Source: Alphaproteobacteria bacterium (lineage in GTDB: Bacteria; Pseudomonadota; Alphaproteobacteria; MPNO01; UBA830). From it: a stretch of DNA of 64,000 bases. The translations under genes were made by a program, and so were the position numbers. Below the pieces are notes generated by a model. The model was not told the DNA's origin and searched no databases. It was given only the letters and a program-made list of their open reading frames with translations. The stretch covers positions 1,472,001-1,536,000 of the forward strand of contig OZ251539.1 of assembly GCA_965243135.1 (NCBI GenBank), read 5' to 3'. The number at the start of each line of letters is the position of its first letter. Position 1 is the stretch's first letter. Of this stretch, positions 42,715-60,419 are shown in pieces.

Positions 42715-42874
42715 GCTTCGCCTCTCGAATCAGCTATAATCGTTTCTACGCAGGCGAGTTCGCCGACGCAAGGTTCAGGGCGGCCCGGCTGCGGGAACCG
42801 GTGGAGGACCTATGGACAACGGGACCGAGGCGGCGCGTCCGTTCGGACTGCCACACAGCGGAGAAGGAAACGAG

Positions 42875-43189: not shown

Positions 43190-43246
43190 GCCGCGCGCGG
43201 CTCGACGACAAGGGCCGCGCCGCTTCGCCGCGCCCCGGGCGTCAAT

Positions 43247-44647
43247 CTATCGCCTGACCTGTTCGACCAGGCGCCGAATGGACGGGTCGTCCTTGCCCAT
43301 TGGCCTGACGCGGGCGAATTTCTCGCGTTCCTCGCCGCGCCAGGTCGCGGGCTTGGTGGCGTCGATGGCGAGCTTGCCGCCGACGCGCATGACCGTATAG
43401 TCCTTCCGCACTTCCGGGATCGAGATGTCCAGCGGATGCAGGCGCGTCCCCGGGATGACGTGCGCCATCGTTTCGGGGTTGCAGCGGCAGGCGATCGCCC
43501 ACAGCACGTCCTGCGCGTTGTAGATGTCGACGTCTTCGTCGACGGCGATGGCGACCTTGACGTGCAGATTCGGTCCCGACAGCGCCGAGATGAGCGTGTC
43601 GCGCGCTTGGCCGTCCCACTGCGCTTGCATCTGGACGATCATCATGAACTGCGAAGCCCAAGGCGGCACGAAGACGTCGAGAACGTTCGTGTTGCCGTGC
43701 GTGTCCCGCAGCCGGTTGTAGTAGGCCGCTTCCATCGGGAGGGTGATCAGGGGCTGGTGGTCCGTGAACCACGTCGCCTGTATGTGGCGGAAAATCGGGT
43801 CGCGTCGATGCGTGATGCCGGTGATCCGGTAAACCGGCGCAGGTCCCTCTGCGCCCGCGCCGAACGTCGTAAACTCGCCGAACGGCCCCTCCGGCGCCCG
43901 GTCGCGCGGATGAACGAGTCCTTCGATGACGATTTCGGCGTGAGCGGGGACCTCGAGGTCGATGGTTTCGCATCTGACCATCTCGATGTCCTCGCCGAGG
44001 ATGCCGGCTCCGTACTCCAGCTCGTCGAAGTCCTCGTGCTTTCCTGACCAGTTCGACATGATCTCGTACACCGGGTGCAGGCCGATGGCGAAAGCCATGG
44101 GCATCGGTTCGTCCTTCGCGGCGTATTTCATGTAATGCGCATAGTTGTGGCGGGCGGCCATCCAGAAGGTCGCTTTGTTCGGGTCGTCCGTCAGCATCAT
44201 CCGGATGATCGCTTCGTTGCGGATGCCGGTTTCGGGATCCTTGGTGATCGTGATGCCCGACCCGAGGTAGCGGCCGCCGTCGCCATGGCTGTGCTGCGGG
44301 ATGGGGAGCGCCCGTAGATCGACCGCGTCGCCGAGCAGCTTCACCTCCTTGACCGGACCGTCGCCGACCATGACCGAGCGGCCGCGTTCGGTGGCCATCC
44401 GCTCGGCGAGATAGGGGCAGACCTCCTGTGCGCGATCGAGTCCGAACGCGGCCGCCTGTCCCTCCCGGTCCATGATCAGCATGTCCGCGAGACGCCAGCC
44501 GGGGTAGCCCTTGAGGTTGTGGAACGTCAGCGGGCCCTTGCTTTCGGAGCACAGGTAGCCGACCTGGGTGACGGGATCGACTTCGTCATGGATGTGCAGC
44601 ATGCGGTTGTCGATGGTTTCGAGAAAACTGCGCAATGTGTGCGGCAT
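43247..44647 (-). CDS. UbiD family (prFMN-dependent) decarboxylase
   Basis: HSHGDGGRYL, VPAHAEIVIEG, EGPFGEF, VDEDVDI, IDATKP. Confidence 0.92.
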   Translation of the reverse strand: MPHTLRSFLETIDNRMLHIHDEVDPVTQVGYLCSESKGPLTFHNLKGYPGWRLADMLIMDREGQAAAFGLDRAQEVCPYLAERMATERGRSVMVGDGPVKEVKLLGDAVDLRALPIPQHSHGDGGRYLGSGITITKDPETGIRNEAIIRMMLTDDPNKATFWMAARHNYAHYMKYAAKDEPMPMAFAIGLHPVYEIMSNWSGKHEDFDELEYGAGILGEDIEMVRCETIDLEVPAHAEIVIEGLVHPRDRAPEGPFGEFTTFGAGAEGPAPVYRITGITHRRDPIFRHIQATWFTDHQPLITLPMEAAYYNRLRDTHGNTNVLDVFVPPWASQFMMIVQMQAQWDGQARDTLISALSGPNLHVKVAIAVDEDVDIYNAQDVLWAIACRCNPETMAHVIPGTRLHPLDISIPEVRKDYTVMRVGGKLAIDATKPATWRGEEREKFARVRPMGKDDPSIRRLVEQVRR

Positions 44648-44779
44648 GACCGACGGCTCCTTGGCGAGGCACGGCCGTCGTCCGCGCGGCCGAGGCCGTC
44701 GGGACGGCGCGCCTGATTTGAAAATCGTTCGCTGCGGGCATATTAACGTTTCGCGATCGAACAGGGAAAGGATCGACGG

Positions 44780-45994
44780 ATGGCGACGATGGCGGCTAGG
44801 GCGGCCGGGCATTCACCCCGCGTCTGGGGGAAGTTCGGTTGGGAAGATCCGATGAAGCTGGACGAACAGCTTACCGAGGACGAACGAATGGTGCGGGAGA
44901 CGGCCCGCCAGTACGCGCGGGAAAAGCTGATGCCGCGGATCGTCGACGCTTACAACGAGCAGCGCGTGGACAGGGACGTAATCCCCGAAATGGGCCAGCT
45001 CGGCTTGCTCGGTTCGACCATTCGCGGATACGGCTGCGCCGGCGTCAGCTACGTCGCCTACGGTCTGATCGCCCGCGAGATCGAAATGGTCGATTCGTCG
45101 TATCGATCGACGCTGTCCGTGCAGTCGAGTCTCGTCATGTGGCCCATCTACAACTACGGGACCGAGGAACAGCGCCGGAAATACCTGCCCGGGCTCGCCA
45201 GCGGCGAGTCGATCGGAGCGTTCGGCCTGACGGAGCCGGATCACGGGTCGGATCCCGGCGGCATGAAAACCCGGGCGGTCAAGGCGGACGGCGGCTATCG
45301 GCTGAACGGCAGCAAGACCTGGATCTCCAATTCGCCGATCGCGGACTTGTTCGTAGTTTGGGGCAAGGACGACGAGGGCATCATCCGAGGCTTCATTCTC
45401 GAGCGCGGCATGGAGGGCCTGTCCACGCCGAAGCTTCACAACAAGCTCAGCTTGCGGGCTTCCGTCACGGGCGAAATCGTCATGGACAACGTCTTCGTTC
45501 CGGACGAGAACTACCTTCCCGAAGCGCGCGGGCTCGGGGGTCCCTTCGGCTGCCTCAACAACGCCCGCTACGGCATCGCATGGGGCGCGCTCGGCGCCGC
45601 CGAGTTCTGCTGGCAGGCGGCGCGCGGCTACGCGCTCGACCGCACCCAGTTCGGCAAGCCGCTCGCTTCCTATCAGCTCGTCCAGAAGAAGCTCGCCGAC
45701 ATGCAGAGCGAGATCTTCATCGGCTATCAGTCCTGTCTCCGCATGGGCCGGATGATGGACGACGGATCGTGCTCGCCGGAGCTGATATCGATGCTCAAGC
45801 GCAATTCCACCGGAAAGGCGCGGGACATTTGCCGGGACGCCCGCGACATCCACGGCGGCAACGGCATCATGGACGAATACCACGTCATGCGGCACTTGAT
45901 GAACATGGAAACGATTTACACTTACGAAGGCACGCACGACATCCACGCGCTGATCCTCGGGCGGGCGCAGACGGGCATCCAGGCGTTCTTCTGA
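44780..45994 (+). CDS. gcdH: Glutaryl-CoA dehydrogenase
   Basis: [67 protein letters not shown]. Confidence 0.93.
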
Positions 45995-46016
45995 GGCCGC
46001 CGCGCCGGGGCGCGCC

Positions 46017-47240
46017 ATGGTCCGGCCGCTGGAGCATGTCCGCGTACTCGATCTGAGCCGCATCCTCGCCGGGCCGTGGGCGGGGCAGACCTTCGCCGAT
46101 CTCGGCGCGGAGGTCATCAAGATCGAACGGCCGGGCAGGGGAGACGACACGCGAGCTTGGGGGCCTCCCTACGCAGTCAGTCCTGATGGCGGGGAAACGG
46201 GCGAATCGGCTTATTTCCTGTCGGCCAACCGCGGCAAGAAATCGGTGACCGTCGACCTCGGCAAGCCGGAAGGCCAGGAGGTCGTCCGAGCCCTGGCGGA
46301 AACGTCGGACGTGTTGATCGAAAACTACAAGGCTGGCGGCCTGGCGGCGTACGGGCTCGATTACGAGGCGCTACGGCGGGTCAACCCGCGCCTGGTGTAC
46401 TGCTCCATCACGGGATTCGGACAGACCGGCCCGTACAGCGGCCGCGCCGGTTACGATTTCCTCATTCAAGCCATGGGCGGCCTGATGAGCGTCACGGGAG
46501 AGGCGGACGACCGGCCGGGCGGCGGCCCTCAAAAGGTCGGCGTCGCGCTGACGGACATCGTCACCGGGCTGTACACGACCGTCGCCGCGCTTTCGGCGCT
46601 CGCATGGCGCGAGAAGACCGGGCGCGGCCAGCACGTGGACATGGCGCTGCTGGACGCGACGGTCGCCGCGATGGCCAATCAGGCGATGAATTACCTGATC
46701 GGGGGCAGGGCTCCGGAACGGATGGGCAATGCGCATCCGAACGTGGTTCCGTACCAAGCCTACAAAACGGCCGACCACTACGTCATTCTCGCGGTCGGCA
46801 ACGACGAACAGTTCAGGAGGTTCTGCGAAGTCGCGGGCCGTTCGCAGCTGGCGGACGACGAACGCTTCGCGACCAATCGCGCCAGGGTGGTCAACAGGCG
46901 CCTGCTGGGCCCGATTCTCGACGAGGCCATCGGATCCAGGCCGCGCGCCTTCTGGCTGGAAGAGCTCGAGAAGGCGGGCGTTCCCTGCGGGCCGATCAAC
47001 GATCTGGCGCAGACGTTCGGCGACCCGCATGTCCTGGCGCGCGGCATGCGGCGCGAGCTTGAGCATCCGACCGCGATTTCGGTTCCCACGGTGGCGAATC
47101 CGATTCGGTTCTCGGAATCTCCCATCGAATACGACCGCGCGCCGCCGACGCTCGGTCAGCATACGGAGGAAATTCTGTCCGGCTTGCTCGGCAAGGACGC
47201 CTCGGAGATCGAGCGATTGCGGGAAATCGGGGCTATCTGA
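46017..47240 (+). CDS. CaiB/BaiF CoA-transferase (probable succinyl-CoA:glutarate CoA-transferase)
   Basis: VLDLSRILAGPW, NRGKKS, GYDFLIQAMGGLMS; directly downstream of gcdH. Confidence 0.9.
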   Translation: MVRPLEHVRVLDLSRILAGPWAGQTFADLGAEVIKIERPGRGDDTRAWGPPYAVSPDGGETGESAYFLSANRGKKSVTVDLGKPEGQEVVRALAETSDVLIENYKAGGLAAYGLDYEALRRVNPRLVYCSITGFGQTGPYSGRAGYDFLIQAMGGLMSVTGEADDRPGGGPQKVGVALTDIVTGLYTTVAALSALAWREKTGRGQHVDMALLDATVAAMANQAMNYLIGGRAPERMGNAHPNVVPYQAYKTADHYVILAVGNDEQFRRFCEVAGRSQLADDERFATNRARVVNRRLLGPILDEAIGSRPRAFWLEELEKAGVPCGPINDLAQTFGDPHVLARGMRRELEHPTAISVPTVANPIRFSESPIEYDRAPPTLGQHTEEILSGLLGKDASEIERLREIGAI

Positions 47241-47317: not shown

Positions 47318-47821
47318 ATGGCGTTGCCTGCGACGGACGAGGCCAAGCGCGAAGCCGGCGCCGCGAAGGACGGCGCGCCGGCTTTCGCGCTCCGCAAGCA
47401 GGTCGGCCATCTGCTGCGCCGGGCGCATCAGCGTCATACGGCGATCTTTCAGGCGATGATCGGCGACGGCCGGGTGACGCCGTTGCAGTTCGCCGTTTTG
47501 ACGACGCTCGCGGACATGGACGAAGCGTCGCAGAATCATCTCGGCCGTCTCACGGCCATGGACGCGGCCACCATGCAGGGCGTGATCAAGCGTCTGCTCG
47601 CTCGCGGGTTGATCAGGCGCCGCGCGGACCCGGGAGACCGGCGGCGCCTGCTGCTCACGTTGTCGGGGGCGGGCGAAGAGTTGGTGGCCGAGGTCACGGA
47701 TCGCGGCCACGCGATCAGCGAACGAACGCTGGAACCGCTGTCGGCCGCCGAACGGAAGACCTTTCTCCGCTTGCTCGGTCGCTTGTCGAGCAGCCCCGCT
47801 TCGAGGCGGCCCGTCGCCTAG
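47318..47821 (+). CDS. MarR family transcriptional regulator (NicR-like)
   Basis: QVGHLLRRAHQRHTAIF, TPLQFA, SQNHLGRLTAMDAATMQGVIKRL, DRRR. Confidence 0.88.
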   Translation: MALPATDEAKREAGAAKDGAPAFALRKQVGHLLRRAHQRHTAIFQAMIGDGRVTPLQFAVLTTLADMDEASQNHLGRLTAMDAATMQGVIKRLLARGLIRRRADPGDRRRLLLTLSGAGEELVAEVTDRGHAISERTLEPLSAAERKTFLRLLGRLSSSPASRRPVA

Positions 47822-49134
47822 TCCGCCCGCTCCAGCGCGGCGATCATCTCGTCCGGGCTGGCGAACTTGCGCCGGGGGGCGCCGGCAGGCGCCGCTTCGA
47901 CTTCCAGCCTGTCGATCTCCTGCCAATCGGAAAAGGAAACGATCCGGACGCCGCGCGCCGCCAGCCGGGCGTCGACCGCGGCCCGCCCGGGCCGCGCGCC
48001 GTCGGGACATTCGGCGAGGAGGCGGTCGACGACTTCGAGCGAATCGTTCTTGTTGGTGCCGATCGTGCCGGTCGCGCCCCGCTTCAGCCAGCCGACCGCG
48101 TACAGGCGGTCGGAAATCCTGCCGTTCTCGTTCGCGACGATTCCGGCGCGGTCGTCGAAGGGAATTCCTTCGATGGGGAAAGCGTGCGATCCGATGCACG
48201 TGACGACGATCTGGCAAGAGACGTCGAAGGTCTCGCCGGTTCCCGACACGCGGCCGTTTTCGTCGACGGCCGTGCGTTCGAGGCGCACGCCTTCGACTCG
48301 CGAGTCTCCGAGAATTTCCTTCGGCGACGCGCAAAAGGCGAAATGGACCCGCTTTTCCTTGTCGGCCGGGTCGACGTCGAGGAAGGAGCGCAGCGTATCG
48401 ACGTTCCTCTGGCGCAGCCTCAGGTCGCGATCGGACATGTAGGGCGCCGCGACCTCGGCCGGCAGCTGCGCCGGATCGACGACGGGGACGGCGTTCCGAA
48501 GCTCTCCCATCTCTCGCAGCTCCACGTTGGTGAACGCCGCTTGCGCGGCTCCGCGGCGCCCGAACATGTAGATGTTCCTTACGGGCGAGGCGTGAAGCGG
48601 GGCCGCGGCATGATCGACCAGATCGGTGACCGACATTTCCTCCCGCGTTTTCGCGAAAACGCGCGCCACGTCGAGCGCCACGTTGCCGATTCCGACAACG
48701 GCGGCCGCTTCGACGTCCAGATCCGGATCGAGTCCGGCGAAGTCCGGATGTCCGTTGAACCATCCGACGAAGGCGTTGGAGCCGAAGACGTTCGGCAGAT
48801 CCTCGCCCGGGATTCCCAGCCTGTTGTCGCGCGGGGCGCCGCAGGCGAGAACCACGGCGTCGTAGGCGTCGAGGAGCTCGGCGACGGAAACGTCGCGGCC
48901 GACCTCGACGTTGCCGAGGTAGCGGAGGCGCTCGTCCTGCATGGTGCGGTCGTACGCGCGGGAGACGCGCTTGGTCTTCTGGTGGTCCGGCGCGACGCCG
49001 CCCCTGATCAGTCCGTAGGGGCTGGGCAGCCTTTCGATCACGTCCACGGCGCAATCGCGCTCCTTGTCGAGCAGACCCTGCGCGGCGTACATGCCGCCGG
49101 GGCCTGACCCGACGATCGCGACGGTGCGAGTCAT
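47818..49134 (-). CDS. Ferredoxin-NADP+ reductase (adrenodoxin reductase/FprA-like)
   Basis: GSGPGG, PYGLIRGGVAPDH, GIGNVALDVAR, GRRG, GWLKRGATGTIGTN. Confidence 0.92.
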   Translation of the reverse strand: MTRTVAIVGSGPGGMYAAQGLLDKERDCAVDVIERLPSPYGLIRGGVAPDHQKTKRVSRAYDRTMQDERLRYLGNVEVGRDVSVAELLDAYDAVVLACGAPRDNRLGIPGEDLPNVFGSNAFVGWFNGHPDFAGLDPDLDVEAAAVVGIGNVALDVARVFAKTREEMSVTDLVDHAAAPLHASPVRNIYMFGRRGAAQAAFTNVELREMGELRNAVPVVDPAQLPAEVAAPYMSDRDLRLRQRNVDTLRSFLDVDPADKEKRVHFAFCASPKEILGDSRVEGVRLERTAVDENGRVSGTGETFDVSCQIVVTCIGSHAFPIEGIPFDDRAGIVANENGRISDRLYAVGWLKRGATGTIGTNKNDSLEVVDRLLAECPDGARPGRAAVDARLAARGVRIVSFSDWQEIDRLEVEAAPAGAPRRKFASPDEMIAALERAD

Positions 49135-49244
49135 TCGAAGAAACCTCTATTCTGGAAAATCGGACTGCGTTGCGGCGCGCGCCGCATAATACCGGGCCGC
49201 GCGGGGCAGGGAAGGGGCGGCGAGGTTTTCGCGCCGCGCACGCC

Positions 49245-50390
49245 TTACCAGAGCGTTTTCGTCGCGATGCGCGCGCCTTCCGCCATCGCTTCGAATTTCG
49301 CCCAGATCACCGTGGGGTGGACTTCGGTGCGATAACACGCTTGCGAGGAAAAACCGCAGTCTCCGCCGGCAAGGACGTTCTCCCGCCCGACCGCCTTCGC
49401 GAAGCGGACGATGCGTTCGGCGATCAGCTCCGGGTGCTCGACGATATTGCTCGCGTGGGTGACGACGCCGGGAATCAGCGCCCGGCCTTCGGGGAGCCGG
49501 ATGTCCTCCCATATCCGGTACTCGTGCTCGTGACGCGCGTTCGCCGCCTCGAAAGAATAGGCTCCCGCCTTGATTCCGAGCATGTATTTCGCGACGTCCG
49601 CCATGGGCGCTTCGTGGACGCGCGGTCCTTCGTTGATGCCGTAGCAGGTGTGGTAGCGGATTTTCTCCGCGGGGATGTTGCGGACGGCGTGATTGGTCGC
49701 TTCCACGTAGACGCTGGCCATGCGGTCCTTCCCGGCGTCGTCGAGTTTCGGGTCGACCAGGGTGTCGCAGAGGAAGGGATCGTCGATCTGCAACAGCAGG
49801 CCGGCCTCGACGATGGCCTCGTATTCTTCCCGCAGCGCCTCCGCGACGGCTTCCGCGTACTCCTCTTCAGTTCCGTAATATTCGTTGAAACCCACTCCTG
49901 CGGGCGCGACCGCAGGCATGAACGCGCCTTCGCACTCGACCTCGGCGAGCGCCGCCTTGAGATTGTCGATATCCCTGTCGAGCGCCGCCCGCCCCTTGTA
50001 GGCCACCGGGCCCACGCAAGCCATGGGATGCACGGGAACCACCGTGCCGCCCATCATCGCCCGCGCGAAATAGTCTTCGTAATACTCCGGGAAAGCGGCG
50101 ATTTCCGCCGCGAAAAGGTCGTGCTTCCGGTCCGGTCGCGGCTCGAACCCGTCGATCCGCTCCTCGATATAGGAGAAGAAGCCCGGCTTCGACATTTCGC
50201 CGTCGGCGACCACGTCGATGCCGGCCTCCGCCTGCCGCCGGACGACGTCGCGAACGCCGTTTCGGATTTCCTTTCGGTAGGCTTCCTCGTCATGGTCCTC
50301 GCCGCTCAGTTTCGCCTTCATCGCGTCGAGAACCGCCGCCGTGCGGGGCAGGCTGCCTACGTGAGTCGTCAGGATGCGACTTCCTTGCAT
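49245..50390 (-). CDS. Cobalamin-independent methionine synthase II family (single-domain MetE-like) protein
   Basis: TTHVGSLPR, DGEM, HTCYG, FEAAN, DCGF Zn-ligand pattern. Confidence 0.88.
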   Translation of the reverse strand: MQGSRILTTHVGSLPRTAAVLDAMKAKLSGEDHDEEAYRKEIRNGVRDVVRRQAEAGIDVVADGEMSKPGFFSYIEERIDGFEPRPDRKHDLFAAEIAAFPEYYEDYFARAMMGGTVVPVHPMACVGPVAYKGRAALDRDIDNLKAALAEVECEGAFMPAVAPAGVGFNEYYGTEEEYAEAVAEALREEYEAIVEAGLLLQIDDPFLCDTLVDPKLDDAGKDRMASVYVEATNHAVRNIPAEKIRYHTCYGINEGPRVHEAPMADVAKYMLGIKAGAYSFEAANARHEHEYRIWEDIRLPEGRALIPGVVTHASNIVEHPELIAERIVRFAKAVGRENVLAGGDCGFSSQACYRTEVHPTVIWAKFEAMAEGARIATKTLW

Positions 50391-50499
50391 GACACTCTCT
50401 CCTTTCCCAGCTCCAGGCCTGCCTCGGTCGACTTCGGAAGACCTTTGCGCTGCTGGCTTCATTAAAGGCGATGCCTGGCCGAGCGGGCAATCCGGTTCC

Positions 50500-52497
50500 C
50501 TATGGCTGCACGGCAGGGCGGGGCTGGCGCAGCCGTTTCAACCTGAACCTGAAGCTTTTGGCCGGACGCGGCGTCGGCACGTTGGTCATCTTCAACTCGT
50601 AGCCGGGCGGATCCAGTTCGAGCTCGGCAGCATGAAAGACGGTCGCAATGACGAGCAGCGTCTGCGTCTCCGCGAAATTTCCGCCGAGGCAGTGGTGGGT
50701 TCCCACGCCGAAAGGGACGAAGACGTTGGGCTGCCGATGCTCGGCGCGCTCCGGCAGGTAGCGGTCGATGTCGAATCGATCCGGATCGGGAAAGAATTCG
50801 GGCAGGCGGTGCGTTACGGAGGTCGCCACGAACAGCGATTTGCCGGCGGGAACGCGGTAGCCGGCGAAGTCGAAGGAATTCGCCGCCTTGCGAAAAATTA
50901 CCGGCGCCGCCGGGTACATGCGCATGGCCTCCAACACCGCGCGATGCGTCACGTCCAGCCGCCGCAGGCTCTCCGCAGATAACGGTTCGGCGAAGAACCG
51001 GTCCGCTTCCGCAACGATTCGCGCCTTCAGATCCGGATGCTTCAGGATTGCGTACAGCGTGAACGCGCAGGTGTTGGCCACGGTCTCGATGCCGACCAGA
51101 TAGGGGCTCAGCACCATGGCGGTCATGTCCGTTTCGGGCATGAATTGCGGATCGGAGCGGTGCAGGTCGATAATGTCGTTGATCAAGTCGCCGGAATCGT
51201 GATGCGGCCCGCCGGGCATGTGGGACTGCAAGCTCTTGCGCGCCAGTTGTTCAATGCGCTCGCGGGCCTTCTTGAACCTACGGGCGAACGGAAACATCGG
51301 CAGTTGCTTCGCGATCGAGGTGACGAGCACCGTTTCAAGGTAGACAACAAGGTCTTCCAGATACTCGGAGGCCGATTCGCCCCCCAGGATCCGGCCCATC
51401 TGGTCGGCGATGATCCGCTGCATCAAGAACAGCGGCTTGATGCGCCGGCCCTCCGGCTGGGCGGCGACATGTTGTCGGCAGACTTCGCTGGCGAGTTCGA
51501 GATGCGCTTGGAACCGCGCGCCGGAAAACGCCGGAGCCATGGCTCTGCGCATGGCGATATGTTCCTTGCCGTCCATATTCAGTACGAGCCTCGAGGCGCC
51601 GAGGCTTTCGGCCAGGCCCCGCCAAGGGTCGTGGGAACTGAGGAAGAACCGTCCTTTGCGGTGGACGAGCCGATTGGCCTCCGCGCCGGCAAGCACGAGA
51701 ATTCTGCGGCGCAGCAGACGAATTTCGAACACCGGGCCGAGTTCGAGGTATTGCTTTGTCAGAAACTCGCGAACGTCCCTGGCCGCTTCCCGAGCGCTGC
51801 CAAGCAACGGCGCTCCCTTGACGAAAGGTATTTCCCTGGCTGGAGGAGAGGCGGGTGCCGCCTCCTCTCGACCGGAATTGCGCACCGCTCGCGTTACGGC
51901 CTGGCCGATCAAGTCCATGCGCCGCACCTGATCGATCCGCTCCCGCACCTCGCCGCGTTCGGCTTTGCTCAGCATTCGCTCGAATAGGCCGCAGGCGTCT
52001 GCGAGGCAGATGACGACGACTTCCCGCGGTCCCGGCATGTCGCCACCGAACAGCACGCCCATGATGCGAAGCCGTACCTCCTGTTCGGCCCGGCCATCCG
52101 CTGTCGGATACCGTCGCGCCCGCGCTACCTTCGGCGACGGCAGCATGGCGCCCTCCTCGACGGATTGCAGAATGCCGGCTTCGACCAGGCGCGCCAGCGC
52201 CGCAGAGCGAATCCGATCGCCGTCCTCGGCGATGCGACGCACCCAGTACTCGGCCTCGTGCGCTTGTTCGCTTTCCGCCACAGACTTCAGGACAGGATCG
52301 AGAAGGTCGTCTCCCACAGGCGCAGGATCGACCAACACGAGCTGTTCGAGATCGGTGTCGATTCGGTTTTCCAGCGCCAAATCCATGAGAACCGCTCCGG
52401 CGAGGGCATGGCGAAGGTCCGCTTCCGGCAAGAACGCCAGAGCGCCCGCGTCCTCGTTCAGCAGCAGCAGCATGATTTCTTCGGCGAAACGCAGCAC
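50500..52497 (-). CDS. Fusion: GOLPH3/Vps74 (GPP34) domain + cytochrome P450
   Basis: aa 1-205: FAEEIMLLLL...LAGAVLMDLALENRI...GDDLLDPVL...ARLVEAGIL...RYP. aa ~225-665: VGIETV I-helix, EAMR (ExxR), FPDPDRFDIDRY, PFGVGTHHCLG heme Cys. GTG start with SD GAGGA. Confidence 0.88.
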   Translation of the reverse strand: MLRFAEEIMLLLLNEDAGALAFLPEADLRHALAGAVLMDLALENRIDTDLEQLVLVDPAPVGDDLLDPVLKSVAESEQAHEAEYWVRRIAEDGDRIRSAALARLVEAGILQSVEEGAMLPSPKVARARRYPTADGRAEQEVRLRIMGVLFGGDMPGPREVVVICLADACGLFERMLSKAERGEVRERIDQVRRMDLIGQAVTRAVRNSGREEAAPASPPAREIPFVKGAPLLGSAREAARDVREFLTKQYLELGPVFEIRLLRRRILVLAGAEANRLVHRKGRFFLSSHDPWRGLAESLGASRLVLNMDGKEHIAMRRAMAPAFSGARFQAHLELASEVCRQHVAAQPEGRRIKPLFLMQRIIADQMGRILGGESASEYLEDLVVYLETVLVTSIAKQLPMFPFARRFKKARERIEQLARKSLQSHMPGGPHHDSGDLINDIIDLHRSDPQFMPETDMTAMVLSPYLVGIETVANTCAFTLYAILKHPDLKARIVAEADRFFAEPLSAESLRRLDVTHRAVLEAMRMYPAAPVIFRKAANSFDFAGYRVPAGKSLFVATSVTHRLPEFFPDPDRFDIDRYLPERAEHRQPNVFVPFGVGTHHCLGGNFAETQTLLVIATVFHAAELELDPPGYELKMTNVPTPRPAKSFRFRLKRLRQPRPAVQP

Positions 52498-52533
52498 TGT
52501 CCGTTCCTCAGGCGCCGGCGTGGGCTGTCGATT

Positions 52534-53676
52534 TCATGCGCTGGCCCGCGGAGGTTCGTAACCCCATGCGTCGACCGCGAACCCCCAGCGTTCGGTCACC
52601 CGGTCGATGTCCGCCTGACTCATCGTGAAGCGGTTCTTGCGGTAACCCGACAACGTTCGGAGATATAGTTCCACTTGCGGGCGGCAGACGCGCCAGTCCG
52701 GCAGGTCGAGTTCTGCGTACAAGCGCTCCAACTCGCCAAGAGGATCGCGCTCAAGATCCTCGTAGCGCACCTCCGCGAGCCGCCCGCGGAGGACGCCTTC
52801 CCGGTCGCGCAGAAATTTGGTCATCGTCCGCCGGTACGCCTCGACGAGAAACCGTTCCATCTCGCGCCAGTCGTAATGGTCGAGCTGGTACAAGGGAAGC
52901 AAGGTCCGGTAAAGATGCAGCAGCGATGGATAAACGGTGTACGGATTACGAACGATGTGGATGAACTTTCCCTTTGGAAAAAGGCGCAACAGATGGTCGG
53001 CGCGCGCCATGTTCACGGTGTTGCGGAACACCATGGGCTTGCCGTTCGCGAGCAGCGACGCCTTGCGAACGACGCCCAGATACGTGCGCTCCCAATGAGA
53101 CAGTTCCCTCGACGACAGGCCGCCGTCGACCGTGTCGCCCAACAGGACATATTTGTTCAACCATCGCATGGAGTGCTGGGGAAAGGAAAGCTGGTGAATG
53201 AAGGACATGCGCGATTCGTTGGCGACTGCCAGATCTTCCTCCTGGGGGGCGTCCATGGATATTTTCACATTGTCCATCGGCCGCGTTTGTTCCTTTCCTT
53301 CGCCCGCTTTCGCCATGCCTTTTTCGAAGAGTCGCTTCAGCCAGTCATGCCCGATCAGGGCGAACGTCGACGTCACTCCCTGATAGGTGCTGAAGTAGCC
53401 GAAGCGGGCGTCTTGCGTGATCAGATTTTGCAGATGCGTGGTGCCCGAACGCCCGAAACCCAAAATGAACAACGGAGGCGGATCCAAGACGACCTTGTTT
53501 ACCCGCCTGGAATACGCCAAGCTCTCGGCGATGCGCAGCGGCGAAGCCAGCGCCGACATGGCCAGGATGCCCGCGGCTCTGCCCCAGTATGGCCGGGCGA
53601 TCCCGCGGTTCTCTATGATGAGCTGCGCCCATACGGATAACGGTGCGAAACTGCAGGGATGAAAGTCGTTCCTCAT
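52534..53676 (-). CDS. PAPS-dependent sulfotransferase (Stf3-like)
   Basis: PLFILGFGRSGTTHL (5'-PSB), RPMDN..S..APQEE, FIHIVRNPY...S (3'-PB), VRYEDL. Confidence 0.9.
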   Translation of the reverse strand: MRNDFHPCSFAPLSVWAQLIIENRGIARPYWGRAAGILAMSALASPLRIAESLAYSRRVNKVVLDPPPLFILGFGRSGTTHLQNLITQDARFGYFSTYQGVTSTFALIGHDWLKRLFEKGMAKAGEGKEQTRPMDNVKISMDAPQEEDLAVANESRMSFIHQLSFPQHSMRWLNKYVLLGDTVDGGLSSRELSHWERTYLGVVRKASLLANGKPMVFRNTVNMARADHLLRLFPKGKFIHIVRNPYTVYPSLLHLYRTLLPLYQLDHYDWREMERFLVEAYRRTMTKFLRDREGVLRGRLAEVRYEDLERDPLGELERLYAELDLPDWRVCRPQVELYLRTLSGYRKNRFTMSQADIDRVTERWGFAVDAWGYEPPRASA

Positions 53677-54001
53677 TTTCTGCCGATCCGTTGGGAACAG
53701 GAATGGAAGGTATCACGCGCCCGCGACAGACAGCAACTCCCGCCGCCGCCCGTCCCGCTCGGCCGACCCGACAGGCTTCGTCGGGAGCGGGGCAGGGTTT
53801 CCCCGGCCTCGGGACTCTGCGATTTCGTCGTGCGCCCGGTCGTGAGCGTGACTCGGGCTGCGGAAACGAATGTTGCGCGGCGGCGCATTGTCGGGAGAAC
53901 GCTTTCCGTGAACGGAATCGCTCCGACCTCGCGCGTTTGAGCGTTTCCGTCGACGGATGGCGCGGGAGTCTGACGCTGGAAGGCGGAGCGCCGGGGCCGG
54001 A

Positions 54002-55258
54002 ATGAACGCCGGACTGTGGACTCGGACCGCCGGGCGGGCGCTCGGCCTTCCGCCGCTTGCCGGGGACGTTTCCGCCGATATCGTCGTCGTTGGCGGCGGA
54101 TATACCGGTTGTTCGGCAGCCTTGCATCTGGCGGAAGCGGGCGCAGAGGTCCGCCTGCTGGAAGCGAAAACGGTCGGACATGGCGGATCGGGGCGCAACG
54201 TCGGTCTCGTCAACGCGGGACTGTGGGTGTCCCCCGAGGGCGTCGAGAAGAGGTTGGGAATGGCGGCGGCCGGAAAGCTAAACCGGGCGCTGGCCGCGGG
54301 ACCCGACCTCGTGTTCGAACTTATCCGAAGACACGGGATCGCTTGCGAAGCCGTGCGAAACGGCACGCTGCATTGCGCGCACGCACCTTCCGGACTTCGG
54401 ACGCTGAAGGAGCGGCTGCGCCAACTGAGGAAAGACGACGCGCCCGCGGAGCTGCTGACGAAGGAAGAAACGCGAATCCGGACAGGCGCTGCCGGGTTTC
54501 ACGGCGCGTTGCTCGACCGCCGGGCGGGAACCATCCAGCCTCTTGCCTATGTGCGGGGCCTGGCGCGCGCCGCAGTCTCGGCCGGCGCGAAACTGCACGA
54601 AAACACTCCCGTATCGGAGTGCCGCCGCGTCGGCGGCAACTGGCGCGTGCGGACGCAGGGTTGCGCGGTGACCGCCCGAACCCTGATCCGCGCGACCAAC
54701 GCCTATCCGCAACCTATCGCGGGGCTTGCGGCGACCGAATTCATCCCTCTCGACTATTTTCAGTTCGCGACGCCGCCGCTGCGCGAGGAACTATTGGCAT
54801 CCGTACTTCCCGGCGGGGAGGGCTGCTGGGACACGGGACGCGTGATGACGTCTTTTCGCCGCGACGCGGAAGGCCGGCTGATCATCGGCGGGATGGGAAC
54901 AATGGACGGCGTCGGAGGCGCGGCGCACCGCGGATGGGCTCGCTGCAAGCTCGCCCGGTTGTACCCGGCGGCGGCGGGCGTCGCTTTCGACCACGCATGG
55001 TCGGGGCGCATCGCTGTCTCGGGCGATCGCCTGCCTCGCGTCGAGGACATCGGGACGGATGCGATCGCCGTTCACGGCTATTCGGGACGCGGCATTGCGC
55101 CGGGAACGGCGTTCGGCAGGGCTGCGGCCGAGTGGGCGCGCACGGGCGACGAGGATGCGCTTCCTGTCGCGCCGGGGCCTCCGCGACGAGAGGGTTTTCG
55201 GCGGCTCAAGGCGCTCGGCTACGAGACGGCGGCGATCCTGTTTCACTTGGCTCGGTGA
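54002..55258 (+). CDS. FAD-dependent oxidoreductase (DAO/PuuB-like)
   Basis: GGGYTG, GSGRNVG, IQPLAY, GYSGRGIAPG; start could be 53957. Confidence 0.88.
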   Translation: MNAGLWTRTAGRALGLPPLAGDVSADIVVVGGGYTGCSAALHLAEAGAEVRLLEAKTVGHGGSGRNVGLVNAGLWVSPEGVEKRLGMAAAGKLNRALAAGPDLVFELIRRHGIACEAVRNGTLHCAHAPSGLRTLKERLRQLRKDDAPAELLTKEETRIRTGAAGFHGALLDRRAGTIQPLAYVRGLARAAVSAGAKLHENTPVSECRRVGGNWRVRTQGCAVTARTLIRATNAYPQPIAGLAATEFIPLDYFQFATPPLREELLASVLPGGEGCWDTGRVMTSFRRDAEGRLIIGGMGTMDGVGGAAHRGWARCKLARLYPAAAGVAFDHAWSGRIAVSGDRLPRVEDIGTDAIAVHGYSGRGIAPGTAFGRAAAEWARTGDEDALPVAPGPPRREGFRRLKALGYETAAILFHLAR

Positions 55259-55350
55259 AAAGCGGCGGCCGGTCGCGCCGCAGGCGCGCCGGGCGAAGAG
55301 GGCGGCCGGGCGCTCTTCACGAAGCTCGATTCGCGCGGTAATTTCCTTGC

Positions 55351-55851
55351 GTGAACAGCACGTTCTACATGGTCGAGATGGACTACCCGGAACGCTCGGG
55401 TCCGGGCCGCGAAGCGTTCGACGGGTTTTACGAACGCCATATTTCGATGTTGCTCGCCATTCCGGGTTTTTTGACCGCGCAGCGCTTCGAATGCGTGCAC
55501 GCGGCGCGCGCGCCGTTTCTCGCCATCTATCGGCTCGCCGGTCCCGAGGCGATGGGCAGCGCGGCCTACCGTTCGAAGGCCGGCCGAATGTCGGTGCCGG
55601 AACGGTTCCGGGCGCGGATGACCAACTGGGACCGCAATCTGCTTCAGGGACCGATCGACCACCTCGAGGTCCTGGACGGCACGCTGAGCTTCGCGGACCG
55701 TTCCGCGGCCGACGAGCTGCCGGCGGGATTCGCGCATTTGAAGGTCGTCGGCCTCGACCGCACGACGGCCTGGCGCGGCGTTCGCAGAAACGGCCCGGAG
55801 ACGGCCGGGACAAGGACGTTTCGCCCGATTACCCCGCCGTTGGCGCGGTAG
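55351..55851 (+). CDS. Hypothetical protein, EthD-like alpha-beta barrel
   Basis: FDGFYERHISMLLAIPGFLTAQRF...FLAIY pattern; GTG start. Confidence 0.6.
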   Translation: MNSTFYMVEMDYPERSGPGREAFDGFYERHISMLLAIPGFLTAQRFECVHAARAPFLAIYRLAGPEAMGSAAYRSKAGRMSVPERFRARMTNWDRNLLQGPIDHLEVLDGTLSFADRSAADELPAGFAHLKVVGLDRTTAWRGVRRNGPETAGTRTFRPITPPLAR

Positions 55852-55893
55852 GCTTTTCTTCGGCGCGCGGGCCGGCGCGCCTTGTCGGGCGCG

Positions 55894-56928
55894 TCAGGCC
55901 CCGGCGCTCACCGTCCAGGTTCGGCCCTTGCGGAGCATGTCGTTGAGCGTGCCGGTCGCCGCGCTCTTCTCGATTTCGGCGAGTTGTTCGTGCACCGCCT
56001 CGTCGTATGGCTTCGCAGGATCGCAGTAGAGCACCCCGAGGGCCACCGGATATTCCGGCTGTTGCATGTCGGCCAGCATCGTGGCCAGCATCTTGTTGGT
56101 CTGGTCGTGGACGAGGATGTCGTCGGCCGTCGCGCCGTCGTCTCCGATTTTGACGATCTCGATGCCGAACCCGTCGGCGCGGCGGGCGATGCCCCGGTCG
56201 CGCTCCTTCCCGAAAATCAGCGGTTGTCCGTGCTCGACGGAGATCGCGTTGTCGGCTACCGCGGACTTGTCGGTCCAGCTGGCGAAGGCGCCGTCGTTGT
56301 AGACGATGCAATTCTGCACGATTTCGACGAAGGACGCGCCCTTGTGCGCGTGCGCGGCCTTGAGCACGCCCGGCATGTGCTTCTGGTTGGTGTCGAAGGT
56401 GCGCGCCACGAATCGCGCGCCGGCCCCGAGCGCGAAGCTGCAGGCGTTGACCGGCGAATCGACGGACCCCTGCGGCGTCGAAGGCGATCGGGTGCCAAGC
56501 TTGCTGGTCGGCGAGTACTGACCCTTGGTGAGGCCGTAAATCTCGTTGTTGAACAGCAGCATGTTGATGTCGACGTTGCGGCGCAGCGCGTGAAGCGTGT
56601 GATTGCCGCCGATCGACAGCGCGTCGCCGTCGCCCATCACGAGCCATATGTCGAGTTCCGGATTGGCCAGCTTGGCGCCCGTGGCGAACGCCGGAGCGCG
56701 GCCGTGAATGGTGTGGAAGCCGTAAGAGGCCATGTAATAAGGAAATCGGGCGGCGCAGCCGATGCCGGAGAAGAAGACCAGATTCTCCAGCGGAATCTGC
56801 AGCTCCGCAAGCGTCCGGTGAACGCCCTTGACGATGGCGTAATCGCCGCAGCCCGGGCACCAGCGGACTTCCTGATCGGAAGCGTAATCGGCCGGCTTGA
56901 GTCGTTCGGCGGGGGTTTCGACGTTCAT
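55894..56928 (-). CDS. korB: 2-oxoacid:ferredoxin oxidoreductase beta subunit
   Basis: WCPGCGD, SGIGC, HTIHGRA, GDGD...NN TPP motif, YGLTKGQYSPT. Confidence 0.95.
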   Translation of the reverse strand: MNVETPAERLKPADYASDQEVRWCPGCGDYAIVKGVHRTLAELQIPLENLVFFSGIGCAARFPYYMASYGFHTIHGRAPAFATGAKLANPELDIWLVMGDGDALSIGGNHTLHALRRNVDINMLLFNNEIYGLTKGQYSPTSKLGTRSPSTPQGSVDSPVNACSFALGAGARFVARTFDTNQKHMPGVLKAAHAHKGASFVEIVQNCIVYNDGAFASWTDKSAVADNAISVEHGQPLIFGKERDRGIARRADGFGIEIVKIGDDGATADDILVHDQTNKMLATMLADMQQPEYPVALGVLYCDPAKPYDEAVHEQLAEIEKSAATGTLNDMLRKGRTWTVSAGA

Positions 56929-56932
56929 CGGA

Positions 56933-58801
56933 CTAATCCTCTATGCGCGAACGGATTTCACGTTCAAGAGTGGAGACCTTGAAGGGCTGGCCGGAAATCT
57001 GGGTGACGCTTTCGGCGTCGACCAGATACTTGCCGCGCAGCACGTGAACCAGCTGCCCGTTGTTCATCTCCGGCACGACGATCCTGTCGAACCGCGACAG
57101 GAGTTCGTCGAGATTGGCGGGCAGCGGCCATATGTGGCGGATGTGGATATGCGAAGCGCTCAACCCGTCGGCTCGGCAACGCTGCACGGCCTGGTTGATG
57201 GCCCCGTAGGTCGAACCCCAGCCGACGACGGCGAGCTTGCCGCGGTCGTCGCCGCTCGCTACCTCCTGCGGCGGGATATCGTCGGCGATGCCGTCGATCT
57301 TGGCGGCGCGCACCTTGGTCATCTTGTGGTGGTTGGCCGAATCGTAGGAAATATGGCCGGTATCGTAGTCCTTTTCGATGCCGCCGATCCGGTGCATCAT
57401 TCCCGGCGTGCCCGGAATCGCCCAATTGCGCGCGAGAGTCTTCTCGTCGCGCAAATATGGATGAAAGCCCTCCGGATCGGCGCGGAACGAGACCTTGAAC
57501 TCGGGAATCCGGTCGATGTCGGGGATTTCCCAAGGTTCGGCGGCGTTCGCGAGATAGCCGTCGGTGAGAAGAATGACCGGCGTCATGTACTTGACGGCGA
57601 GCCGCACCGCCTCGATCGCTGTCTCGAAGCAATCTCCCGCGGTCGCGGAGGCGACGACGGGAAGCGGCGTGTCGGCATTGCGGCCGAAAACGGACTGGTT
57701 GAGATCGGATTGCTCCGTCTTGGTCGGGAGGCCTGTGGACGGGCCGCCGCGCTGGCTGTTGACCACCACGAGCGGCAGTTCCGCGACAAGGGCGAGGCCG
57801 ATCGCTTCGGTCTTGAGCGCCACGCCCGGCCCCGACGACGACGTGACGCCGATCGCTCCGGCGTAGGATGCGCCGATCGCCGAGCAAACGGCGGCGATCT
57901 CGTCCTCCGCCTGGAAGGTCGTGACCCCGTATTGCTTGAGGTTGGTAAGCGTATGCAGCAGCGCCGACGCCGGCGTGATCGGGTAGGAGCCGAGAAAGAG
58001 CTTGAGCCCGGCCTTGTGGGCGCCCGTGACCAGCCCCCAGGCGATCGCCTCCGTGCCGGTCACCGCACGGTAGGTGCCGGGCCGGACCTCGGCCCTGGGC
58101 ACCATGTAGGCTTCCGCTCCGGAAGGCAGTTCGACCGTCTCTCCATAGGCATGGCCGGCGTTGAGCGCAGCGATGTTGGCCGCCGCGATGTTGGGCGACT
58201 TGCCGAATCTGTGCTTCACCCAATCGACGGTTGGCTGCCGGTCGCGGTCGTATATCCAGCACATAAGGCCAAGCGCCCAGAAGTTCTTCGCGCGCGTCGC
58301 TTCCTTGGCCGACACGCCGCAATCGGCGACCGCGGCGTTGGTCAACTTGTTCATCTCGACCGCAATCACGGCGTAGTTGTCGAGGGTGCCGTCTTCCAGC
58401 GGATTCTCGCCGTACCCGGCACGCGCGACGTTGCGGGCCGTGAAGGCGTCCGTGTTGACGATGATCGTGCCGCCCTTGGGCACGTCCCTGAGATGCACCT
58501 TGAGCGCCGCCGGGTTCATGGCGACGAGGACGTCGGGTTCGTCGCCGGGAGTCTGGATATCGTAGGACGCGAAATTGATCTGAAACGCAGAGACGCCGAA
58601 GGTCGTTCCGGCCGGCGCCCGGATCTCCGCCGGAAAATCGGGAAAGGTCGCGAGATCGTTCCCCATCAACGCGGTCGACTGCGTAAACTGAGTGCCCGTC
58701 AGCTGCATTCCGTCGCCGGAATCGCCGGCGAAGCGGATGACGACCGAATCCAGCGCCTTGCGATCACTCTCCGGGGCGGCTTCCGCGATGTTTGTGGCCA
58801 T
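56933..58801 (-). CDS. korA: 2-oxoacid:ferredoxin oxidoreductase alpha (gamma-alpha) subunit
   Basis: FAGDSGDG, PAEIR, YPITPAS, QAEDEIAA, QRGGPSTGLPTK, EMNNGQL; start ATG 58801. Confidence 0.95.
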   Translation of the reverse strand: MATNIAEAAPESDRKALDSVVIRFAGDSGDGMQLTGTQFTQSTALMGNDLATFPDFPAEIRAPAGTTFGVSAFQINFASYDIQTPGDEPDVLVAMNPAALKVHLRDVPKGGTIIVNTDAFTARNVARAGYGENPLEDGTLDNYAVIAVEMNKLTNAAVADCGVSAKEATRAKNFWALGLMCWIYDRDRQPTVDWVKHRFGKSPNIAAANIAALNAGHAYGETVELPSGAEAYMVPRAEVRPGTYRAVTGTEAIAWGLVTGAHKAGLKLFLGSYPITPASALLHTLTNLKQYGVTTFQAEDEIAAVCSAIGASYAGAIGVTSSSGPGVALKTEAIGLALVAELPLVVVNSQRGGPSTGLPTKTEQSDLNQSVFGRNADTPLPVVASATAGDCFETAIEAVRLAVKYMTPVILLTDGYLANAAEPWEIPDIDRIPEFKVSFRADPEGFHPYLRDEKTLARNWAIPGTPGMMHRIGGIEKDYDTGHISYDSANHHKMTKVRAAKIDGIADDIPPQEVASGDDRGKLAVVGWGSTYGAINQAVQRCRADGLSASHIHIRHIWPLPANLDELLSRFDRIVVPEMNNGQLVHVLRGKYLVDAESVTQISGQPFKVSTLEREIRSRIED

Positions 58802-59501
58802 GTTTTTTCTGTCCGAATTCTGGTGAGCCGGGAGGCTAGGGAGGCGCGCCGCGCCCGTCAAGTTTCGCCCGGACCGAACCGAGCTGTCGCGAAACATATA
58901 ACACGGCGGGCGAATCTTGCGAAAAACCTGCATTTCCGCGGGAGGCTTGCGCCGATCGACCGTCGGGCAAAGGCCGGCTGCGGGAAGACCGCCAACATCC
59001 CGGTCGCTTTCTGCAGGCGGGCGGGTTCTTCGGCGGATCTTCGCGGCGACGGGGTCCGAACGTCGGTGCCTCCCTCCCTCGGCGCGGTGCGTTCGATCAG
59101 CGCCTTCAGCGACGCCGTTCGTGGCGGCGTCCGGCCTCGTCCCGCCGCGCCGTCCGCTCGGCTTCTGCGCGATATCGCTGGGCTTCCAACTGGGCCGCCT
59201 CGTGCCTGCGCTGCGCTTGGGCGCGATCCCGAGTGCGGTTGAAATAGAACATAAGCGAAAGGCCGGCAGCGATCGGTCCGCACTGAATGCAGCCGATCAG
59301 ATTCGACGTTTCGCCCTGGGCCAGACTTGCCTTATGGAGAGCGAGGGTCGCGTTCCGGAACGTTGCAGCTTCGAATTCCGTCATGGCGAGCGGCTTCTCG
59401 AACCTTTCGCAGGAGACGCGCATCTTAGCGGAAGCGACTCGCCGATGTCCATATTGCGGGGCGCGCGCCGGCTTTGTCGGTTGCCGACCGCTCCTCGCCG
59501 C

Positions 59502-59543
59502 TTGACTTGAGCGGAAAGGCCGCATTGTATGCATGCGAACGAT
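59502..59543 (+). promoter_or_regulatory. Putative promoter with overlapping palindromic operator for the Mo-hydroxylase operon
   Basis: TTGACT-N17-TTGTAT; imperfect palindrome ATTGTATGCATGCGAACGAT (59524-59543, 14/20 positions symmetric). Confidence 0.5.
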
Positions 59544-59558
59544 CTGGATCGGGCGGCA

Positions 59559-60419
59559 ATGTCATCCTACCTGAGACCCGAGAGTCTCGACGAGGCGTTG
59601 CGGGCGCTGGCCGACGGCGGCTACGCGATAATCGCCGGCGGGACCGACTTCTACCCGGCCAGGGTGGGCCGCGCGATTCGAGAAGACGTGCTGGACGTCA
59701 CCGCGATTCCGAACTTGCGGGGCATCGAGGATTGCGGAGATAGTTACCGCATCGGCGCGCTGACGACCTGGAGCGACGTGCTTCGCGCCGATTTGCCGGA
59801 CTGGTTCCGAGCGCTCCGGCTCGCGGCCCGTGAAGTCGGCGGAGTTCAGGTGCAGAATGCCGGAACGATCGTCGGCAACATATGCAACGCTTCGCCCGCC
59901 GCCGACGGCGCGCCGTGCCTGATGGCCATGGACGCGGCGGTCGAGCTTGCCTCGATCTCCGGCGAACGCGAGGTGCCGGTCGCCGGATTCGTTGCGGGCA
60001 ACCGGAAGACGGTTCGAAAGCCAGACGAAATGGTGATCGCCCTGCGCGTTCCGAAAGCCCGGCCTCGCGCTTCGAGCGTATTTCTGAAACTCGGCGCGCG
60101 CAGGTATCTGGTAATTTCGATCGTCATGGCGGCGGCCGTCCTGGAAACGGCTTCCGACGGCACCGTCGATCGGATGCGCATTGCAGTGGGCTCCTGTTCG
60201 GAGACCGCATGCCGGCTGCCGGATCTGGAGTCGGCTCTCGCGGGCCGGCCCGTCGACGCGGCGCTTGCCGACCGCGTCGCGACGGATTCGCTCGCGCCGC
60301 TGGCGCCGATCGACGACATGCGCGGCACCGCCGCGTACAGGATGGAGGCCGCGCTGACCATGGTGCGCCGCGCCGTCTCCGAGCTCGGAGGGCATGCATG
60401 CCAATCTCTTTCACGCTGA
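59559..60419 (+). CDS. Molybdenum hydroxylase FAD subunit (nicotinate dehydrogenase NdhF-like)
   Basis: AGGTD, VGGVQVQNAGTIVGNICNASPAAD, KLGARRYLVISI, PIDDMRGTAAYR. Confidence 0.92.
   Translation: MSSYLRPESLDEALRALADGGYAIIAGGTDFYPARVGRAIREDVLDVTAIPNLRGIEDCGDSYRIGALTTWSDVLRADLPDWFRALRLAAREVGGVQVQNAGTIVGNICNASPAADGAPCLMAMDAAVELASISGEREVPVAGFVAGNRKTVRKPDEMVIALRVPKARPRASSVFLKLGARRYLVISIVMAAAVLETASDGTVDRMRIAVGSCSETACRLPDLESALAGRPVDAALADRVATDSLAPLAPIDDMRGTAAYRMEAALTMVRRAVSELGGHACQSLSR

Follow-up and report, generated by a model that had tools for sequence, protein, structure and literature searches.

A GPP34–cytochrome P450 fusion encoded beside a sulfotransferase: a candidate oxygenase for bacterial hydroxylation and sulfation of lipids

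Bacterial proteins in which a GPP34 (GOLPH3-like) domain precedes a cytochrome P450 are already known. Ferreira et al. (Microbiome 2025;13:4, PMC11706023) described them as GPP34_L, a form to which 656 of the 663 long GPP34 proteins belong. The main text of that paper records GPP34 for 16 of 20 phyla of sponge symbionts and its absence from all 85 free-living genomes, reports that short and long forms are both expressed in Aplysina aerophoba, and finds short GPP34 genes no more than five genes from a P450 in 8 of 13 and 17 of 19 genomes. Its proposal is that GPP34 proteins, once secreted, bind phosphatidylinositol 4-phosphate (PI4P) of the host and block phagosome maturation. Here, we describe a gene of this type from an alphaproteobacterial genome. 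The gene lies at 50500..52497, on the minus strand of the window, by which we mean the whole 64,000-nucleotide stretch of DNA that was analysed (contig OZ251539.1, positions 1,472,001 to 1,536,000, of assembly GCA_965243135.1). Its product has the domain order and the size (about 650–700 amino acids) of GPP34_L. The window gene is a further case of that form; a first-pass annotation of the window had implied that the architecture was new, and this does not hold.

The published account and ours differ in coverage and in proposal. The main text of Ferreira et al. (PMC11706023) contains no P450 classification, no analysis of pocket residues and no sulfotransferase or sterol-type neighbours, and the terms ‘signal peptide’, ‘binding site’, ‘sterol’ and ‘sulfotransferase’ do not occur in it. 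Whereas that paper proposes a secreted PI4P effector, the evidence presented here points to metabolism. Our literature search found no other paper on the fusion, and none linking a sulfotransferase to GPP34-P450 proteins. The interpretation we prefer, to which we give about an even chance, is that the fusion is the oxygenase of a module in which a lipid is hydroxylated and then sulfated.

The fusion gene is a single open reading frame (ORF) that encodes 665 amino acids from a GTG start codon. A Shine–Dalgarno-like GAGGA (52505..52509, minus strand), identified by direct reading of the sequence, lies 7 nucleotides (nt) upstream of the GTG. Two Pfam domains were detected in the product. Residues 5–206 (51880..52485, minus strand) match GPP34 (PF05719, E 5.8e-40; 137.9 bits against a cut-off of 29.1), covering profile positions 2–199 of 201. 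Residues 228–632 (50602..51816, minus strand) match p450 (PF00067, E 5.4e-53; 180.8 bits against a cut-off of 22.8). Between them is an Ala/Pro-rich linker, residues 207–227 (51817..51879, minus strand), which contains SGREEAAPASPPAREIPF and through which the frame stays open without a stop codon. This is the layout that the first-pass annotation had read from the letters alone: an N-terminal GPP34-family stretch of ~205 residues joined in one frame, by an Ala/Pro linker, to a P450. The linker differs in sequence and length among 23 homologues, in which both domains are conserved (47–80% identity). In a full-length AlphaFold2 (AF2) model, with a predicted local distance difference test (pLDDT) score of 85.2 and a predicted template modelling (pTM) score of 0.77, pLDDT falls below 50 at linker residues 211–215.

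The junction between the domains is real. Among the listed protein clusters, 119 of the best 120 contain both Pfam domains, counting that of the window (42–93% identity). Relatives are encoded by at least 562 of the 600 pattern matches listed, on contigs that represent one genome per species. Furthermore, Logan contigs from three sequencing runs and two studies span positions 51830–51890 without an insertion or deletion. These cover 50767–52491 with 0 differences from the window (run X2, record 3), 51379–52494 with 5 differences (run X5, record 11) and 51550–51909 with 3 differences (run X6, record 20). Together, the two-domain clusters, the relatives on genome contigs and the bridging contigs rule out an assembly chimera or a lost stop codon. 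The contigs from all three runs stop or branch at window positions 52463–52495, the conserved 5' end of the gene, and their loose ends differ. Such branching probably reflects words shared with paralogues or with other strains in the metagenomes.

For comparisons between loci we used a survey of 80 related loci, or 81 with the window, in which ORFs were called by a simple first-start rule, so distances are approximate. The fusion tree and all residue counts are based on 77 of the 81 rows; the other four (L056, L064, L070 and L073) yielded no fusion ORF of at least 550 amino acids and were dropped. In L056 the fusion is split into two ORFs. The remaining three hold stand-alone homologues of the P450 domain (46–50% identity, match at 8001–9350) with no GPP34 within 8 kb, and one of these records is labelled Candidatus Entotheonella.

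The P450 domain carries the motifs expected of an active enzyme. The ExxR and FGxGxHxCLG signatures claimed in the first-pass annotation were located as E523 with R526 and as FGVGTHHCLGG, with C603 as the haem ligand. This loop (F596 to G605, 50683..50712, minus strand) and the ExxR motif are retained in 77 of 77 fusion proteins, and P595, G597, G599 and C603 are invariant in 23 homologous sequences. The I helix has G469-I-E471-T472 (51082..51093, minus strand), an acid–alcohol pair for O2 activation, and G-x-(E/D)-T is kept in every clade but one. The exception is a distant fusion clade (L053–L080, 33–39% identity), in which the pair is replaced by H-Y or I/L-Y with a one-residue gap. The genes of this clade (e.g. 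L057:6865–17061) belong to cassettes that also encode a Rieske oxygenase of the KshA type, a methyltransferase (Sterol_MT_C) and an RND pump, and its loci often hold two fusion paralogues each.

By both sequence and fold, the closest PDB matches of the P450 domain are the CYP51–ferredoxin structures of Methylococcus capsulatus (7snm, 7jj1 and 6mcw; E ~3e-40, target-based template modelling score (TMt) 0.84). That protein is likewise a bacterial P450 with an extra fused domain; it differs in that its identity to the window P450 is 24–25% and in that the fused domain of the window protein is not a redox partner. CYP families are defined by more than 40% identity, and CYP51 has its own I-helix signature. 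A true CYP51 is ruled out by the low identity and by the ordinary Glu–Thr (GIET) I helix. Further PDB relatives are CYP184A1 (solved with oleic acid), human CYP51 (20–21% identity), CYP120A1 and BM3. The best structural relatives thus act on sterols, terpenoids or fatty acids. None of the NCBIfam models was reached by the fusion, the best being a CYP170-type model at 130.5 bits against a cut-off of 700. Judged by its sequence, the P450 is predicted to be an oxygen-activating, competent monooxygenase that sits in a CYP51-like structural neighbourhood and is not CYP51.

P450 BM3 (CYP102) also combines a P450 and an accessory domain in one chain, and haem domains of BM3 were recovered in the fold comparison. 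Conversely, the accessory domain of the window protein matches no flavin or iron–sulfur family. A redox-partner fusion is ruled out: there is no fused flavodoxin/FAD reductase or ferredoxin, and GPP34 and p450 are the only domains found. The first-pass annotation had noted that P450 fusions typically involve redox partners. Since the accessory domain lacks a flavin or iron–sulfur match, electrons must come from separate proteins.

The best functional clue, which the first-pass annotation did not contain, is a conserved adjacent sulfotransferase. The gene (52534..53676, minus strand) encodes 380 amino acids and ends 36 nt upstream of the fusion. The product matches Sulfotransfer_3 (E 8e-34; 118.2 bits against a cut-off of 27). 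Its best PDB match is 2z6v_A, titled ‘putative uncharacterized protein’, and the GRSGTT loop and the RNP...S motif align, at an E value of only 1.1e-7. We take 2z6v to be Stf9 of Mycobacterium avium, of the mycobacterial Stf type, and the two motifs to be the 5'-PSB and 3'-PB elements. Profile match and nucleotide-binding loops identify the product as a sulfotransferase of the type that uses 3'-phosphoadenosine 5'-phosphosulfate (PAPS). In the gut, some bacterial sulfotransferases act on sterols of the host. A homologue of the window sulfotransferase is found in 17 of the 80 related loci (18 of 81 with the window). It is on the same strand as the fusion in 18 of 18 such loci and no more than 300 nt away in 17 of them. 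The sulfotransferase is the only neighbour common to these 18 loci, whose labels run from Alphaproteobacteria to Latescibacterota, Binatia, Gemmatimonadota and Acidobacteriota.

Other parts of the fusion tree have other partners. Classes of partner track fusion-tree clades, with 19 label changes compared with 46.7 in shuffles, and 0 of 200 shuffles were as low. The window falls in a supported set of 10 rows (Shimodaira–Hasegawa-like approximate likelihood ratio test 99), 9 of which are sulfotransferase-linked. Labels in this set are Alphaproteobacteria, Pseudomonadales, Longimicrobiales, Bryobacterales, Latescibacterota, Binatia and Vicinamibacterales, and this mixture of phyla implies horizontal spread. 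Elsewhere among the 81 loci, the partners are an ICMT-type methyltransferase (7 loci, adjacent and on the same strand in 7 of 7), Acyl_transf_3 (12 loci, 9 of 12), an ecdysteroid-kinase-like kinase (7 loci, 5 of 7), an MFS transporter (8 loci, 2 of 8), a KshA-type Rieske oxygenase (13 loci, 9 of 13), a Sterol_MT_C methyltransferase (11 loci, 0 of 11) and the RND pump AcrB (23 loci, 6 of 23). The clade partners all conjugate or export lipophilic compounds, which fits a logic of hydroxylation followed by conjugation. Acyl_transf_3, ICMT, RND and MFS are families of integral membrane proteins. Such partners fit a membrane-resident substrate, with GPP34 as a peripheral dock. In Latescibacterota-labelled records, the upstream side of the fusion is occupied by sulfotransferase paralogues in tandem, two at L004:5463–7851 and three at L005:4351–7976.

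The genome that carries the fusion is a single contig of 6.10 Mb and is 98.8% complete. Searches of it with the squalene/oxidosqualene cyclase families (PF13243 and PF13249) gave 0 matches, and the controls were positive. Sterol_MT_C (PF08498) also gave 0 matches in this genome, a weak result given that its control matched nowhere. A cyclase is present in only one of the five genomes that carry the nearest sulfotransferase-linked loci, where ~157 kb separate it from the fusion, and no cyclase occurs among the neighbours common to the 18 sulfotransferase-linked loci. Because the genome has no cyclase match, it is probable that the substrate either enters the cell from outside or is something other than a cyclic triterpenoid.

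DNA nearly identical to the window was found in 9 sequencing runs from 3 studies. Runs X5, X6, X8 and X9, all from one study, are labelled sponge metagenome, and the pieces from X5 and X6 are long with few differences. No RNA run is listed among the runs that hold window DNA. Across 41 related genomes, GPP34 is present in 9, our own counted. It occurs in 4 of 4 genomes of the same genus, in 0 of 20 from other genera of the same family, and in 4 of 5 from one other family in the same order. Few genes that are specific to sponge symbionts are as widespread as the fusion. The first-pass annotation had hinted at host-derived lipids, and this fits with the sponge-metagenome DNA and with the lack of a triterpene cyclase match. 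The genome contains one fusion and one short GPP34 gene, encoding 218 amino acids (contig positions 5790455–5791057, minus strand; Pfam E 4.9e-50), which is 46% identical to the N-domain of the fusion. The short gene adjoins genes for a STAS-domain protein and PEPCK, and no P450 was found among its neighbours.

We next consider the GPP34 domain. A Foldseek search with the full-length model returned P450 matches only, and hence the N-domain (residues 1–215) was modelled separately (pLDDT 90, pTM 0.87). All 8 PDB matches of this model at E≤1e-3 are GOLPH3 or Vps74, with query-based template modelling scores (TMq) of 0.61–0.73. A profile of 38 N-domains, compared with PDB sequences, matched GOLPH3 (3kn1, E 1.5e-12) and Vps74 (E ~1e-10), and nothing else below E 0.1. 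Because profile and Foldseek searches found GOLPH3 and Vps74 alone, the GPP34 fold predicted for the N-domain is confirmed. With the known structures (3kn1, 9qpq, 2zih and 4tu3) the domain shares its fold, its homology over profile positions 1–194 and a projecting β-hairpin, for which the model has strands at residues 110–112 and 118–120. It differs from them in being joined to an enzyme, in lacking the ~60-residue N-terminal region, and in lacking most of the residues of the PI4P pocket. Proteins P0058, P0071 and P0080 (872–954 amino acids) have a tandem GPP34-GPP34-P450 arrangement, with two GPP34 stretches ahead of the P450.

In GOLPH3, the PI4P pocket consists of W81, R90, R171 and R174, sites that were mutated in pairs to alanine for PI4P-binding tests (Wood et al., 2009, PMC2806290). 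Equivalent positions in the fusion were taken from a profile alignment to 9qpq_A, with numbering as in that study, and counted over the 77 fusion proteins. The W81 site is P24 in the profile alignment, or L23 in a single-sequence alignment, and Trp occurs in 0 of 77 at either column. At the R90 site is A33 (Ala in 74, Ser in 3). The R171 site is D94, with Asp or Glu in 50 of 77 and Arg or Lys in 4. Only the R174 site, R97, retains the residue of GOLPH3 (Arg in 47 of 77, Lys in 1). Hence, three of the four pocket residues are gone across the family. Double alanine mutants of the GOLPH3 pocket reportedly lose PI4P binding. This pocket is what defines membrane binding in GOLPH3. With three quarters of it lost, a PI4P anchor of the GOLPH3 style is unlikely on the basis of these alignments. 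Other surfaces are retained. The hairpin tip has G116 in 63 of 77 proteins, followed by F/L and W/L/F residues. After the tip is a basic motif, V-x-R-x-R-R-Y-P, of which V124, R126, R128, R129, Y130 and P131 are kept in 51–76 of 77, and R144 is conserved in 77 of 77. The N terminus of the fusion aligns to GOLPH3 residue 60–61 and has no extension. As suggested in the first-pass annotation, a role for the domain as membrane anchor or lipid presenter is plausible from its sequence.

In the interpretation we prefer, the fusion would be an intracellular P450 monooxygenase with GPP34 as its N-terminal accessory module, and it would form a two-gene unit with the sulfotransferase. The P450 would hydroxylate a lipophilic substrate, either isoprenoid or sterol-like or another membrane lipid, and the sulfotransferase would esterify the new hydroxyl with sulfate. 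Because the genome has no squalene/oxidosqualene cyclase, the substrate would most likely be supplied by the sponge or by its community, or would not be a cyclic triterpenoid. The GPP34 domain may dock the enzyme on the bacterium's own membrane by means of the hairpin and basic motif, close to the substrate and to membrane-bound partners. Eukaryotic microsomal P450s use an N-terminal membrane anchor, and the putative dock would be analogous. If the fusion is such an oxygenase, the question moves from manipulation of host cells to lipid chemistry between sponge and microbe. It would also point to bacteria as the makers of some of the modified or sulfated lipids in sponges, and would be a first functional clue for many bacterial GPP34 proteins. 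Linkage to a sulfotransferase in a cyclase-free genome, together with the lost PI4P pocket, is testable and runs counter to the only published hypothesis. The P450 and the sulfotransferase make a simple two-gene system that can be expressed and assayed.

Several observations weigh against hydroxylation and sulfation as the function of the pair. The strong link to habitat and the spread across phyla would also suit a host-directed role, and the protein may be secreted by systems that need no N-terminal signal. Gene order alone is no proof of reaction order. The predicted substrate class spans sterol or terpenoid to fatty-acyl lipids, and fatty-acid hydroxylases score nearly as well. The only candidate reductase, a flavoprotein encoded at 47818..49134, recurs in none of the 80 related loci, and among the Pfam-annotated genes of the window none near the fusion encodes a ferredoxin. 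One pocket residue survives, with Arg at the R174 equivalent in 47 of 77 proteins, and the profile alignment is less certain near the hairpin. Finally, stand-alone P450 homologues exist, so the GPP34 domain is not needed for the P450 fold.

Other explanations place the protein differently. In the main text of Ferreira et al. (2025, PMC11706023), GPP34 proteins, the P450 form among them, are proposed to be effectors that are secreted, attach to PI4P of the host and halt phagosome maturation, so that the symbiont persists in sponge cells. The distribution among symbionts and the expression in A. aerophoba reported there agree with this, as do the recurrence of window DNA in sponge-metagenome runs, the patchy occurrence among relatives, the mixing of phyla within fusion-tree clades and the retention of the GOLPH3 fold. 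We nevertheless think this role very improbable for the fusion, in which three of four PI4P pocket residues are absent family-wide and no signal-like extension precedes the first domain. In addition, an oxygen-activating P450 that is fully conserved depends on haem and on an electron chain, and such needs are hard to square with a secreted lipid-binding decoy; the linkage to conjugating enzymes and efflux pumps is tight. It is improbable, to a lesser degree, that the GPP34 domain acts as an adaptor. It would then recruit a partner transferase, or assemble P450 dimers or tetramers via the β-hairpin, in the way that GOLPH3 and Vps74 hold the tails of Golgi transferases. The hairpin mediates a crystallographic dimer of GOLPH3, an equivalent interface occurs in the Vps74 tetramer, and GOLPH3 pocket mutants still bind transferase tails, according to Wood et al. 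(2009, PMC2806290). The hairpin is kept in the fusion, tandem GPP34 forms exist, each fusion clade has its own transferase partner, and the published proximity of short GPP34 genes to P450 genes (PMC11706023) points the same way. However, the partner enzymes have unrelated folds, so one common adaptor surface is not obvious. An adaptor role would moreover concern only the domain and would be compatible with the proposed hydroxylation and sulfation.

The remaining alternatives accept a metabolic function. In one, the P450 and sulfotransferase are a phase I/phase II pair that would render toxic lipophilic metabolites, made by the sponge or by neighbours, inactive and soluble for disposal. Partners elsewhere in the tree provide sulfate, phosphate, acyl and methyl conjugation as well as pumps (RND in 23 and MFS in 8 of 81 loci). 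Several genomes have at least two fusion paralogues or tandem sulfotransferases (two in L004, three in L005), as in a diversifying defence set, and the window genome has no cyclase for triterpenoids of its own. Conversely, none of the sulfotransferase-linked loci, that of the window included, has a pump linked to the fusion, and identities of 63–80% across phylum labels in the clade of the window suggest one defined substrate, not broad specificity. The chemistry would be that of our preferred interpretation, and only the purpose would differ; we regard detoxification as possible but rather unlikely. We see very little chance that the fusion and sulfotransferase instead oxidise and sulfate a hopanoid or sterol made by the bacterium itself. 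CYP51 is the best fold match of the P450, and the distant fusion clade is associated with Sterol_MT_C (11 loci) and KshA-type Rieske oxygenases (13 loci), both of which would suit such tailoring. Against it stand the 0 matches to both cyclase families in a 98.8%-complete genome with positive controls, and the cyclase-free state of 4 of the 5 genomes with the nearest sulfotransferase-linked loci, the fifth having its cyclase ~157 kb away. The lack of a cyclase among the neighbours common to the 18 loci and, more weakly, of Sterol_MT_C in the window genome are in the same direction.

Our interpretation can be extended beyond the window. In this broader form, which we consider unlikely though worth stating, GPP34 would be a bacterial membrane-lipid module, and GPP34-P450 proteins with clade-specific transferases (sulfo-, phospho-, acyl- and methyl-) and pumps, shared horizontally among sponge symbionts of many phyla, would hydroxylate, conjugate and return sterol- or terpenoid-like lipids of the host. 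Sponges are known to contain sulfated lipids, and the sulfotransferase-linked clade, found here in a genome that has no cyclase of its own, would in that case be one bacterial source of them. Bacterial GPP34 proteins would thereby gain a first function.

Downstream of the fusion in the window are two further genes on the minus strand. A MetE-like gene (Pfam Meth_synt_2, 49245..50462) begins 37 nt beyond the fusion. It is followed by the flavoprotein gene (47818..49134), whose product belongs to the pyridine-nucleotide-disulphide oxidoreductase family (Pyr_redox_2, E 6.8e-16). The four genes, from sulfotransferase to flavoprotein, are thus separated by 36, 37 and 110 nt. It is possible that the flavoprotein is a local electron donor to the P450; we presume a likeness to adrenodoxin-reductase/FprA types. 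As conserved partners of the fusion, the MetE-like gene and the flavoprotein gene are both rejected, each being found in 0 of 80 related loci. A sequence scan of 47500–54200 gave 0 promoter-like sites and 7 terminator-like sites, compared with 6.1 expected, and was uninformative.

Pfam matches in the flanking regions (40038–47240 and 53957–63148) comprise a glycosyl transferase family 3/PYNP_C protein, a UbiD-family decarboxylase, an acyl-CoA dehydrogenase, a family III CoA-transferase, a DAO-type FAD oxidoreductase, POR (pyruvate:ferredoxin oxidoreductase family), a CO-dehydrogenase-type flavoprotein and a molybdopterin dehydrogenase. UbiD, acyl-CoA dehydrogenase, CoA-transferase, DAO and POR each recur in two or fewer of the 80 related loci.

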